Assembly: GCA_964016885.1 (NCBI GenBank)
Contig: OZ024742.1
Span: 66,526,001-66,590,000, forward strand
Reading direction: 5' to 3'
DNA: 64,000 nt
DNA from: Eledone cirrhosa
Lineage: Eukaryota
Shown: in pieces, positions 975-60,733 of the stretch
How the letters are laid out: every line of letters begins with the position of its first letter
Position numbering within the stretch: position 1 is the first letter of the stretch
Notes under the pieces: generated by a model
What the model saw: the letters and a program-made list of their open reading frames with translations, nothing else
The model's database searches: none
What the model was told of the DNA's origin: nothing
Made by a program: the position numbers and the translations under genes

Positions 975-1258
975 ACGTGGGAAAGTAATTAATCAGAGAA
1001 TAGACCGTTAAAACATGTTTATTTAAAACAGCACTTATGTACGTTTCGCCCAGTTGGGCTTCTCAAGGGCATAAATAATCATACCCTATTTTTAATATGA
1101 TATCCCTGAAATATATATAATGAAATAAATATGGTTTTATAAATATAGTTTCCATTTATTTAATATCGTAAATATACTCCAAATACTTGTTGAGTGCTTT
1201 TATATCAGTTATAAATATTTACTCGTTGTAACCCAACAATTTAAATAAAACTTTGCAT
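975..1258. mobile_element. Chimeric solo pLTR insertion: H2-family pLTR end (minus, 975-1081) fused to H1-family pLTR end (plus, 1082-1258)
   Basis: 975-1081 matches 1491-1595, and 1082-1258 matches 14718-14893. Flanked by (TA)n on both sides. Confidence 0.85.
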
Positions 1259-1490
1259 ATATATATATATATATATATATATATATATATACAGTATGTA
1301 TATATATATATATGTATATATATATATATATATATATATATATATATATATATATATATATATATATATATATATAGTATATATATATACATATATATAT
1401 ATATATATATATATATATATATATATATATATATATATATATATATATATACAGTATATAATATATATATATATATATATATATATATAT

Positions 1491-3048
1491 ACGTGGGAAA
1501 GTAAAAAATCGGAGAATAGACCGTTAAAACATATTTATTTAAAACAGCACCCGTACGTTTCGCTGAGTTGGGCTTCTCAAGGGCATAAATAATCACAAGT
1601 GTTCCTTATATTGCTCGGAAAGAGTTTTTGGGGCTAAATCCACATCAAGTTTCATTGCTAGCAAAAATATCTTGTTTTGATTTTGCAGCAGGTCAAGGGA
1701 GATAACTCTGGCCGGTGTTAGGGCAGTCTTTCCCGGACAATTTTTTTTTTTTCCGCAACTGTTTGTCTGAGGCTGGGTCTGGTACGCAAGGATTGTTACC
1801 TGGGTGTTATTTTGCAGCGCCTGCCCGCCGGGGTGTTAAGACTTGTTGCAGGGAGATCCGGTGTACGGTTTCACTCCTCATCCTTAACCCATCTGAAGAA
1901 GGATATTTTTAAGCGATGTGTACAACTTATCGCTGTTTCAGCTCTGCTGTTGATGAGCTCGTGGGGTGCAGTTATGATGAGGTAGAGCTCCATGAGGCAA
2001 AGATCGCATTTTCTCTTGAAGTTGTACGGTGCAGCCCAGCTGGCAATCTCCCAGTGCGTGGAGAAGCTGATGTTTAAGTCCTTTAGTGATGTGATGTAGT
2101 CCGCGAGCGAAGTTTAAGTGCCTTAGTTTTCTATTTGTGAAAGAGTGAGATGTGTTCGAAACCTAATTTTGAACGGGCCGGAGGTAGCCCCTATATAATG
2201 TTTAACGCTATTGTGGCTGGTAATAGTGCATCTATATATAACCCTATCAGTCAAGCAGTATCCTCTAAGGGGGCAGCGTAATCTGTCGCGGCAGTTGCAA
2301 TTTCTGTCGCGGTTCCGTCTATTTCCCACGGTAAGGCTATCATTGTTGCTGCCTACGTTGTTACCTACGCTACTGCAGCTGTCGTTAACACCATTACAAT
2401 CCACAGCACGCCGGGTGGTGCGATTGTTATTCCGCACGTCATGTCCTGCATGTTCCCCAGTCATTTCGCGGTTATGCTGGTTGCGTCTGCGGATGCCGTT
2501 GCCAACACTATTGGATGCTGCCAGGGAAGTTGTTAAGGCCGATATGGTTATTGTCAGGTGTAAGTGTGTCTGTGTCAAGGTGCTGTGTCTTGGTGATCTT
2601 ACTGTGGTTCGTTGTTCCTATGATGTCTGCTAGGTTAGGAGTAGTAGAGAAGGATATTTTTATATTGTTCCTATTAAGAATTTTTCTATACCTAAAGGCG
2701 ACGGCCTACTACCAACGCCTTCCAACCAACATCTTCGTGTACATAAACATGGAAGAGGTAGGAAGAGTGCACCCGAGCATAAAGTGAAAGGGGCACCGAA
2801 CGGGCGACTGCGCATTAACACACATAAGAGCAGTCACCTCGATGGAACCACCCGTAGCAAAAGTACAAGGACACGTAATTGCCACCGTAACGTCCTATGA
2901 TTCCACCCCTCCCCCCTACTCTCGGAGTGTAGCCTCCAACATACCCCGCATGTTCTTCGAAGCCTTAGAGAAGAACTTCCCGCCCAACCATAGGTATAGA
3001 AAAATTCTTAATAGGAACAATATAAAAATATCCTTCTCTACTACTCCT
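1491..3048 (-). mobile_element. 5'-truncated Hydra-clade-like PLE (family H2) with 5' inversion; frameshifted GIY-YIG endonuclease remnant
   Basis: Minus frame reads CNCRDRLRCPLRGYCLTDRVIYRCTI..HYIGATSGPFKIRFRTH, then CDLC and CTH motifs after a frameshift. Plus strand 2693-3048 encodes the upstream PPPYS..FPPNHRYRKILNRNNIKISFS segment. 2636-2692 is an inverted repeat of 2992-3048. Confidence 0.9.
1549..1585 (-). ncRNA. Hammerhead-like motif in the H2 pLTR with UUGAGAA core (other copies at 1035-1074 and 15160-15196)
   Basis: Minus strand of the 1035-1074 copy: GCCC-UUGAGAA-GCCCAACUGGGC-GAAA-CGUAC. The stem I register differs between copies. Confidence 0.5.
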
Positions 3049-57441: not shown

Positions 57442-58137
57442 GTTGTAGAAGAAAAAGGTAAAGGACCATCAAAAGGTATCCAATATGAGAGTTAGCGCTC
57501 AACCGTTAAGGAGAAAGTTAATGTAGGAGGTGAGTTTTATTGTAGTACAATAAAGCAATGCAGATATCGGATAAGAAGCACTCTACAGTTTGTAGGACTG
57601 GAGCATACATAATATATAAGATCAAAAGATGGTTAAAAGAGTTCCATGTATTTTATTATGCGCATTTAAATATCATCATGCAATAACATTTGTGTTTTCA
57701 TCAGATAAAATAGGAAGACATGATATGAAGGTTAAAAACACTGGTGGATAGTGCAGTTTTAAATCAATATATGAAAAGTAGTTTTAGATTGATGTGTGAT
57801 ATTGGGGGAAATTTTTTTAGGGGGTGGGGTGGAAAGGATGAAAAAGAGGAGGAGATGAGAGTAAAAAGTGGAGGGGGAGGAGTATAATGAGGAAGGATGA
57901 GATAGGAGGAGAAATGGGTGATAGAGAGAGAGAGATAGCTTTTATAACTGAGAGGAATATATTGTTTTACATAGAGAGGTTGAAAACCGTTGGAAGATAA
58001 TGTATAAATTAAAAGAATTTGAAAATTAACGAAGAGAAAATAATATAAAGTTAAGGTTTGTATATTGAAGGGTTTAATAATATGTGCGATAGAAAGAAAA
58101 TGTTGATATGTATTATTAAAAAAACAAAAGAAATGTC

Positions 58138-59127
58138 TATATATATATATATATATATATATATATATATATATATATATATATATATATATATATACAG
58201 TATATATATATATATATATATATATATACAGTATATATATATACATATATATATATATATATATATATACAGTATATATATATATGTATATATACAGTAT
58301 ATATATATATATGTATATATATATATACAGTATATATATATATATATATATATATATATATACAGTATATATATATATATATATATATATATATATATAT
58401 ATATATATATATATATATATATATATACAGTATATATACATATATATATATATATATATATACAGTATATATATATATATATATATATATATATACAGTA
58501 CATATACATATATATACAGTATATATATATATATACAGTATATATATATATATATATATATATATATATATATATATACAGTGTATATACATATATATAC
58601 AGTATATATATATATATATATATATATATATATATATATATATATATACAGTATATATATATATATATATATATATATATATATATCTATATATATATAT
58701 ATATATACAGTATATATATATATACATTATATATATATATATATATATATACATATATATACAGTATATATATATATATATACAGTATATATATATATAT
58801 ATATATATATACTGTATATATATATATATATATATACTGTATATATATATACTTTATATATATATATATATATACTGTATATATATATATATATATATAT
58901 ATATATATATATATATATATATATATATATATATATACAGTATATATATATATATATATATAAAGTATATATATATACAGTATATATATATATATATATA
59001 TACAGTATATATATATATATATATATATATATATATATATATATATATATATATATATATATACAGTATATATATATTTATATATATATATATACAGTAT
59101 ATATATATATATATATATATATATATA
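58138..59127. repeat. (TA)n tract densely interrupted by TACAGTA/TACTGTA
   Basis: Directly visible. Confidence 0.98.
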
Positions 59128-60733
59128 TGGAGAAGAAGTTTATGAAATGGAAATGCGGGTATACAGAATTTATTAGGTAACAATTGTTTCTATAGTGTAT
59201 GGGTTACCTATACCTCGCTATTTGAATAATATAAAAATATTATCATAAACCGAAGGTACACTGTAAGCAAACACACCATGTCGTCAGACCATTGTATTGG
59301 AATGATATGAAAATATTTTATACACTAGATAAAAGATAAAGAAGGAGGTAGGAAGAGAAGGGGAAGAGGGAAATGAGTAAGGTGGAGGGAGTCTTAGGAC
59401 TTAAGACTGTCAGACTAGTAGAGATTGTAAGGAGAGAATGTTTTGGCAGCAGTTAGCTTAATGAGGCGTGTTAGGGTTGGCGGGGAAAATAAATTCTTCT
59501 AGTGGTGTTGTTCGGACAAAATTTAGTTAAAGGGGTCAAAGTGGTACAGTGTCACAGACAAGTTATTGGGGCTATTATAGTAGCAGGTTATTTCTAAAGG
59601 GGTCCAGAAAACAGTGTTTAGTACTCTAATTATAGAAAGCCATATCTTGTGTATAAACATATAAAACAGAAATTTGCAAACGGTGGTGTAAAAAGGTAAC
59701 ATTATATGCATTTAAAAAAAGAAAAAGTCGTTTTCAAACGATGGTTACAGTATAGAGAAAGTTCAATTTTGCTGTTCAAAAGTTTGTTTACCGACGTTAA
59801 AATGCAGTATATCTCCAAATTGCATAACTTGCAGAATCGATGATTTTGCTTATATGCAGGCGCAGCCGTAATAATTTGCCAATCATGGGAGAATGCTTGA
59901 TTGTTCCTCCGGAGTTGCCAGGCTTTATCGGCGAGGGTTGATACGGAGCGCATTTTCTCGTGCCTGATCGAAGATCGATGTTGGTATAGGCGAGCCTTGA
60001 AAGAAGTTGCGGTACATCCGACGTAATACCATTTGTTGGTTCCGGAATTTATTGTACATCGGTAGACAATATTGCGTGCTAGGCACTGGTTATTCAGTGG
60101 GCACGTACCTGGTTTGGTGCAGTTACAATTATATTTATGTTTTGCAGTAGAATCCTGGATAGTTTGGTGGGGTTGTAGTTGCGTGTTAGTGCGTTGTATG
60201 TTGCTATGCTGGTGCGCTGAGTCATTAGGGATGTACTTATTCAGTATTGCTGAGTTGAGTTTTTTAATTAGTTGTTCTATGTTATGTGCAGTGGAGTATG
60301 AGAGTCTAATGGTGCGCGAGTTAAAGATTTTATAGTATTTATGTGAAGTTGTAACGTGTTTATTGATTAGTGTATAGAATTGTGAGATAATATTAGTGCT
60401 AATAGAAGAATTGTACACGGGGTTATACCATATGTACTCTCTACGTCTGACTCTATTTGCTGGTTTGCACCTATTAGTATGCCTATTGATGTGTGTGTGG
60501 TGCAATACTAGTTCGACTTAGATGTGTTTTATTCATAGTACTTATGTGGTTATCGTCTAGATATTCTATTTTCTCGCAGTAACCAGCTTTTCTAAGTGCA
60601 TCATTATAATATTCAGCATGCTCGTTGAAGGTCTGCAAATTAGACGATAGTCGGGAGATCCTTATGGATATATTTTTAGGGATAGATTTAATAATGGAAT
60701 GAGGATGGTTCGATTTTACATTAACGTACTTGA
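59128..60733 (-). mobile_element. 5'-truncated Hydra-clade-like PLE (family H5): thumb/linker, GIY-YIG (59702-60505) and 3'-UTR
   Basis: Motifs SNHP, IWYNPVYN, CNCTKPGTCPLNNQCL, WYYVGCT..FKARLYQH, CKLCNLE, YCNH. One frameshift near 60500. Confidence 0.9.

Follow-up and report, generated by a model that had tools for sequence, protein, structure and literature searches.

A probable CAG-punctuated (TA)n array in Eledone cirrhosa, apparently hit repeatedly by Penelope-like elements and a predicted hammerhead retrozyme

Results

The window analysed here, 64,000 nt at positions 66,526,001-66,590,000 of contig OZ024742.1 (C3) from the 3.0-Gb assembly of Eledone cirrhosa, contains a nest at 976-60734 (all further coordinates are those of the window) in which eight coding Penelope-like element (PLE) families, a 310-bp hammerhead retrozyme array (RZ310) and fold-back derivatives lie between 29 TA blocks. 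Our analysis points, with fair confidence, to a single long (TA)n array, punctuated by CAG, into which PLEs and the retrozyme inserted repeatedly and which local duplication lengthened, an upper-tail outcome reached without an attracting mechanism of its own. The families, resolved by self-BLAST, tblastn and motif checks, comprise four of Hydra type and four that carry Neptune/Nematis-type features or are relatives. A preliminary description, made by a model from the letters of this stretch, had reported at least eight PLE families, a retrozyme, fold-backs and about nine hammerheads amid TA, which self-BLAST, tblastn and a hammerhead scan bore out. The window is interstitial, 66.5 Mb along the 378.9-Mb sequence of C3, and with no TTAGGG run present a link to telomeres was rejected.

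A rare mark in the TA blocks

The TA blocks (9088 bp between 6 and 59128, counted to 60789) are punctuated by a TA-CAG-TA mark, in the form TATACAGTATA (102 occurrences) or TATACTGTATA (7), that is found 109 times or 13.3 times per kb of TA. The same mark occurs twice in 600 kb of sampled DNA (60 evenly spaced 10-kb bins on C1-C4, the four largest chromosomes, which serve as the background throughout), or 0.05 times per kb of TA, and was found in none of the flanks of copies elsewhere of the PLE families P1, P2 and M12 and of RZ310. Because the blocks carry this common rare mark they are likely to be one array. The mark has the opposite orientation at 17510-18792 and at three points of the block at 58138-59128, and it is absent from a 1.08-kb tract beside the scaffold gap and from several short blocks.

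That an insertion splits a TA tract, as the preliminary description supposed, was seen directly once. A local triplication of a ~2.8-kb unit spans 34272-46084 (M12-like fold-back, TA, the hairpin H173 of 172/173 bp, TA, P1-like fold-back with a Helitron-like insert, TA); unit 2 reads CAG-(TA)17-CAG, which is the empty site, and unit 1 reads CAG-(TA)8-RZ310-(TA)13-CAG, the filled one, with the retrozyme at 35136-38200 on the minus strand. The unique parts of the three units are 99.2-100% identical and their TA barcodes are related but not identical. P2 and the segment S17 form a further local duplicate, whose copies at 1492-3761 and 15103-17373 share 97.7% identity and a common TA barcode, the two P2 copies being mutual best matches (97%, vs at most 95% for others). 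Local duplication contributes ~10 kb of the nest in all (1080-3761 vs 14716-17373, triplication units 2-3, and the non-coding S52).

CAG-type arrays form a class in this genome, with 744 exact, clustered matches of one spacing. In the clusters of C1, a CAG or CTG stands every ~7-11 TA units in long runs of the same orientation with occasional flips (739 same vs 86 different). TACAGTA/TACTGTA equals the excision footprint given for Sleeping Beauty (10.1101/659086), and the marks were considered as independent Tc1/Sleeping Beauty footprints; this is unsupported, given the orientation shared by neighbours and the finding that 0 of 263 inter-TA segments are CAG..CTG elements.

Insertion next to TA and the two-ended structure of the copies

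The outer termini of the window elements adjoin TA in 37 of 38 listed cases, a list drawn from TA blocks and therefore partly circular; the exception is the left arm of the family N5, which adjoins (GA)n and then TA. Internal joins away from TA occur at 1080, at ~3050-3070, at the edges of the Helitron-like insert and at the R47/Q48 and Q48/T50 boundaries. Among copies of six families elsewhere in the genome (top-scoring matches, window copies excluded, some being the two arms of one insertion and hence not fully independent), 149 of 159 end within 200 nt of (TA)5, compared with a background of 2799/16878 (16.6%), so the genome-wide enrichment of (TA)n flanks on which the preliminary description had staked its account is present. 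By family the counts are 25/28 for P1, 27/28 for P2, 26/28 for M12, 28/29 for N5, 21/23 for R47 and 22/23 for M60, and the three P1 misses continue as another tandem unit.

In each family there are two ends, set apart by a characteristic spacing (P1 58-62 nt, M12 ~88, P2 ~160, R47 ~45, M60 ~112, N5 35), giving family-specific tails of 35-165 nt. Fold-back pairs combine a long end with a short one; the window P1 does so, as do all seven P1 pairs seen outside the window, and there is one long/long exception in N5. The short end of N5 runs into (CT)n before TA in the window (4090-4124) and in four copies elsewhere, as if a terminal CTCT had slipped in priming. Hydra PLEs are reported to sit nearly always in (TA)n, and an inverted arm with a one-sided tail is already described for PLEs (PMC8557442), while for an Anolis element it is reported that both strands are cut and extended with two internal start sites (PMC11167929); the pairing of a long with a short end seen here fits both accounts.

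P1 and the question of a sink

P1 (18793-32995, minus strand; long end at 18793, short end at 32995) is one 14.2-kb insertion made of two full 4286-bp units, a third unit that is truncated at its 5' end and, at 30448-32995, an inverted arm, the units and the arm being 99.8-99.9% alike. Both full units hold intact, stop-free open reading frames (ORFs) of 1267 aa (one at 23160-19357, the other in unit 2 with its end at 23643). Among the 42 genome matches listed from 1171 candidates, 41 stand at the top score, all at 100%, and the best protein match is one of Octopus vulgaris at 68%. P1 is thus intact, as first described, and very young.

Nothing ties P1 to the other families of the nest. The tails differ from family to family, that of RZ310 (26-38 nt) being nearer to N5 (35) than to P1 (58-62), and RZ310 showed no similarity to the window PLEs, P1 and the pseudo-long terminal repeats (pLTRs) included, so that its derivation from a window pLTR was rejected. 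Because the pathway goes through translation, the nearness of a donor ORF would have no evident role.

The preliminary description had cast the locus as a self-expanding sink, in which each insertion splits a TA tract and leaves two new targets, with intact P1 copies as a possible enzyme source in trans. In a true sink of this kind insertions would regenerate and lengthen the target, attraction would go beyond TA content (for example through open chromatin or tolerated heterochromatin) and the P1 of the locus would power the other elements in trans. The window does stand out: it is 13.6% TA with 33% PLE-coding cover (20% non-redundant) and 5 hammerhead motifs per 10 kb, against 6.2% TA runs and 4.5% PLE-coding in sampled DNA, a 4-7x PLE enrichment that is inflated by queries taken from the window itself. 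An array of one lineage, a split site with 21 TA units where the unsplit one has 17, and an intact young P1 would also suit a sink. If CAG arrays attracted PLEs, however, the 13 other CAG-array clusters on C1 (20 stretches, 180 kb, 30% TA) should be rich in them, but their PLE cover is 4.3% and their hammerhead density 0.78 per 10 kb, which is background content and led us to reject CAG arrays as PLE sinks; cover by the window's element library was 10.5% in these clusters vs 6.4%. Likewise, PLEs (p=0.56) and hammerheads (p=0.46) are no more abundant than in random DNA in the 10 kb beyond the ends of 20 further young P1 copies, and P1 neighbourhoods as nests were rejected. Family-specific tails and the lack of similarity between RZ310 and P1 also speak against a drive in trans. 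With other CAG arrays and P1 flanks at background, and with ~10 kb of duplication and one 14.2-kb P1 insertion supplying much of the length, the sink was not borne out and we consider it unlikely; the nest can be accounted for by the supply of targets, by a small number of large young insertions and by duplication, with no further attraction needed. Across the sampled bins, TA content correlates with PLE cover (rho 0.48) and with hammerhead types (rho 0.57), and 12 of the 60 bins are without any TA run.

Several observations weigh against the account of a single, ordinary array. The window's PLE cover lies well above background, and a draw of six independent sampled bins attains 10-13 kb of PLE cover with a probability of 2.6e-3 to 8.5e-5, which corresponds to several to a hundred expected windows with such cover among ~47,000. 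P1 ends elsewhere lie in somewhat TA-richer DNA (p=0.004 vs all bins, 0.055 vs TA-bearing bins). The CAG mark may have spread between neighbouring tracts after insertions, the filled/empty pair is a single one, and the 200-N gap at 34072-34271 is unspanned.

The gap, lying beside the 1.08-kb TA tract, and the 99.2-100% identity of the triplication units are also what an assembly mosaic would lead one to expect, with separate loci joined via TA tracts or the gap and an artefactual triplication. We regard this as improbable. The rare CAG mark lies on the plus strand to the left and to the right of the gap alike and continues into the upstream flank, a pattern that random mis-joins through TA would not give and which speaks for one array; moreover, the three units differ in tract structure, the retrozyme is present in only one, and contigs of independent runs carry P1-type sequence with opposite-strand joints. 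The tract next to the gap (32996-34071, without CAG) is interrupted by TG in its left part and by CA in its right part, as if the tract itself were folded back, and ends at the gap.

The retrozyme RZ310

RZ310 consists of 9.9 units of 310 bp (99% match, GC ~34%) with 10 hammerhead motifs and no ORF of 150 aa, and by its sequence it would be classed as a non-LTR (long terminal repeat) retrozyme, having tandem low-GC units within 150-450 bp, a predicted type I hammerhead in each and no ORF. Its hammerhead has 2528 exact matches in the genome (pattern search), and for ~1,300 of its long ends the junction with TA falls at a single phase (reverse, 665; forward, 1252 and mostly counted twice). Among the first nine arrays on C1, eight are two-armed with 3' ends outward, the 3' phases lying at ~118-130 (exact extension) and 154-167 and the 5' phases being variable; seven of these eight end in TA at both ends. 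At 21 distinct junction loci (nine duplicates dropped), 10 have the opposite arm, 10 run off the 1.5-kb edge and one meets a gap, and wherever both ends are visible (5/5) one is long and the other short.

In three arrays elsewhere (L124, L126, L127), variants are fixed array-wide, in every complete monomer and in both arms. This is what repeated copying of one monomer would give, and the template was likely a circular RNA, although a transcript of an already uniform array may have served instead. Local growth of the retrozyme array and the fold-backs by unequal exchange, as satellites derived from single pLTR remnants and with no fresh retrotransposition, is suggested for vertebrate retrozymes (10.64898/2026.07.22.740005) and has a parallel in the real local duplication of the window, but for RZ310 it is largely refuted and very improbable, given the ~1,300 long ends at the same TA phase, the two-armed arrays with fixed 3' and variable 5' phases, the variants common to both arms and the absence of the array from the other two units of the triplication.

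In three public runs, contigs contain the RZ310 monomer as a 340-letter looped piece, and in four they contain P1 relatives; the kind of run is not on record and these contigs have no bearing on expression. The monomer (35136-35445) is represented by 71-100% of its words in 20 runs under 18 organism codes, the four runs examined more closely all have P1 relatives too, and the retrozyme is therefore likely to be common to related species.

Clade features of the PLE families

Clade labels are provisional here and rest on motifs of the reverse transcriptase (RT), linker and endonuclease. The features given for the Hydra clade are DKT, a CxCX5C linker and a C-terminal endonuclease (PMC8557442). 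In our families the change from DKG to DKT is found as SDKT in M12 and M56, the region being absent from M60 and P2, and the CxCX5C linker before a C-terminal GIY-YIG, with no CCHH pair in the core, is found in M12, M60 and P2 and is degenerate in M56. The RWK motif appears as RIRWR in M12 and RLRWI in M56, keeping RW but not K. A pLTR hammerhead is predicted in M12, M56 and P2, whereas M60 has the first half-core only, as do four other copies viewed. The likeness to the Hydra clade, including Hydra-1_Obim (Craig et al., 2021, PMC8557442), extends from the C-terminal endonuclease, DKT, CxCX5C and predicted hammerheads to (TA)n insertion, tandem and inverted arms and a tail at one end. Unlike in that description, four Hydra-type families here share one array with other clades, their tails measure 88-165 nt rather than 30-40 bp, and M60 is without a full hammerhead.

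N5 and P1 have a CX4CxxC linker and, in both, core cysteines followed by His (CCHH-type endonuclease). N5 carries GLKF and DKG and matches Pfam RVT_1 and, weakly, GIY-YIG; P1 carries PPKF and DKS and is without a Pfam match. Of the features of Neptune/Nematis-type PLEs (CX2-5CxxC linker, GxKF/Y and DKG; PMC8557442), N5 thus shows all three, while P1 shows the linker but is distinguished by PPKF, DKS and its 1267-aa ORF.

Hammerhead motifs

A strict scan of the window gave 29 hits of eight types, compared with 0.55 per shuffle: P1 (~19008-19052, with copies at 23333, 27619 and 32801), its 38.8-kb variant, M12 (10270 on the minus strand and 14698-14763 on the plus strand), its 34.5-kb variant, RZ310 (type I, one per unit, the first at ~35296-35338), T50 (~50885-50930), M56 (~54103-54173) and P2 (a U3-A8 core, ~15159-15196 in the second copy). 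By eye, N5 (U3-A8, minus arm, ~4227-4274), R47 (minimal, ~46201-46235) and S52 (degenerate, U4C, ~52675-52722) also fit a hammerhead, F17 has a core without an adjacent stem I, and the earlier count of about nine appears fair. No hammerhead family was among the best 150 of 199 Rfam matches at E<=1, and minimum free energy folds were better than shuffles for one of 10 motifs, S52 (z=-3.5), the lack of support for the other nine being expected because they are minimal hammerheads. These motifs resemble the minimal pLTR hammerheads of metazoan PLEs (Cervera and De la Pena, 2014, PMC4209133) in their short or palindromic helix III, the bulge 5' of helix II, the U3-A8 variant and the opposite-strand pairs.

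The 60 sampled bins hold 77 predicted, hammerhead-like motifs of many families (1.2-1.3 per 10 kb), compared with 1-5 in shuffles, a density that sets this genome apart from the description in PMC4209133. Extrapolated to C1-C4 this would give ~2x10^5, a rough figure for clumped, predicted motifs; for the axolotl 'up to 120 000' retrozyme copies are reported (PMC7229834) with a descriptor that differs from our scan. Another tandem hammerhead family, with ~467-bp spacing, was seen in two of the sampled bins.

Other elements of the nest

Families differ in age, with mean identities to copies elsewhere of 93.6-99.6%. At the left edge lies a hybrid (976-1256, self-BLAST) of a P2-type 3' end (976-1081, minus strand) and an M12 3' end (1080-1256, plus strand), and the joint at 1080 is the start of the 2.7-kb local duplication. 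It is followed by the first P2 with S17 (1492-3761, minus strand; P2 part to ~3050), a Hydra-type fold-back with an endonuclease fragment, by the Neptune-type fold-back N5 (4125-10103, plus strand), whose ORF is broken by frameshifts and a stop, and by the Hydra-type fold-back M12 (10172-14892), with a frameshifted minus-strand ORF and ends 88 nt apart. The second P2 with S17 (15103-17373, minus strand; P2 part to ~16660), a 71-bp P1 3'-end fragment within TA (17439-17509, minus strand, 100% to 18853-18923) and the non-coding fold-back F17 (17666-18596), whose flanking TA carries CTG and hence the opposite orientation, lead up to P1.

Beyond the triplication lie R47 (46085-47800, minus strand), a PLE endonuclease with 3' untranslated region interrupted by a Helitron-like repeat at 46668-47239, and Q48 (47800-50160, plus strand), a degenerate sister family of P1 (60-68% aa over the RT) with no endonuclease within the window. 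The non-coding end families are T50, F17 and S17/S52. T50 (50500-51067, plus strand) is a young, dispersed end whose best 40 of 1628 candidate copies genome-wide are 99-100% identical, and S52 (52300-53876, plus strand) is present twice as a local duplicate (100%). M56 (53977-58137, minus strand), of Hydra type, has pLTRs at 53977-54594 and 57523-58136, and the 5'-truncated Hydra-type M60 (CxCX5C) occupies 59129-60734 on the minus strand.

Non-PLE repeats also sit inside the nest, one of them with copies at 38925-39578, 41787-42440, 45029-45682 and 46668-47239, in the P1-like fold-back and in the R47 endonuclease frame; we take its ends to be Helitron/Lep1-like. A 205-bp element with ~22-bp inverted ends at 51112-51316, in TA, is a miniature inverted-repeat transposable element or a tiny fold-back. 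The H173 hairpin (34793-34964, three copies) is very common, with matches in 18 of the 60 sampled bins; the copies viewed lie at TA and lack a complete hammerhead.

Discussion

The locus is an extreme case of a known PLE habit, a real feature that is mostly explained by known PLE biology. By analogy with the enzymology of the Anolis PLE, the PLE protein of each family would nick TA on both strands, and reverse transcription would start at two internal sites of the PLE RNA to give a pair of arms that face outward, one of them bearing the tail typical of its family. TA would be left on both sides of each insertion, a structure that is seen here with its enzymology taken from the Anolis study. 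The retrozyme likely borrows a PLE enzyme and would be copied round an RNA circle. The nest would then be the product of a plentiful target, large young insertions and duplication, with P1 merely one among several possible enzyme sources. Our elements resemble the Anolis Poseidon element PAc as characterized in vitro (Frangieh et al., 2024, PMC11167929) in the AT-rich DNA and, by inference, in both strands being cut and extended and in the two internal start sites that bound the tail, whereas what we add are genomic ends that fall where element and target share a short ATAT/TA overlap, one long end being paired with one short.

RZ310 shares with metazoan non-LTR retrozymes the ~300-bp low-GC tandem units, the type I hammerhead, the lack of an ORF and a proposed mobilisation by PLEs (PMC7229834; 10.64898/2026.07.22.740005). 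Copying of circles by PLEs or LINEs (long interspersed nuclear elements) has been proposed for retrozymes (Cervera and de la Pena, 2020, PMC7229834), and local amplification and PLE hijacking have both been proposed with the mechanism left open (Li et al., 2026, 10.64898/2026.07.22.740005). RZ310 arrays bear the PLE signature of fold-back, two ends and TA, together with array-wide variants; a text search of these two papers found no description of such inverted arms. A literature search, with subscription papers thinly covered, returned no paper on cephalopod retrozymes or on TA nests of PLEs. The TA barcode with its filled and empty site is locally new, and the broader novelty is the insertion signature of the retrozyme.

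The nest itself is known behaviour at a high dose, and its value is that of a natural experiment, in which a single barcoded array preserves several PLE clades, a site in both its empty and its filled state, and a retrozyme bearing the PLE insertion signature. On balance we lean towards a wider view of (TA)n as a genome-scale habitat that, in this lineage, is common to many PLE clades and to circular ribozyme RNAs, which would be copied repeatedly by PLE enzymes from both ends of one break, with rare marks in TA arrays making single arrays traceable through splitting, duplication and re-invasion. The entry of animal retrozymes into DNA is proposed, and not demonstrated, in the main accounts cited above (PMC7229834; 10.64898/2026.07.22.740005), and because one genome contains both P1, a PLE that is young and intact, and a candidate circle of 310 nt that is also young, this step is directly testable in vitro.

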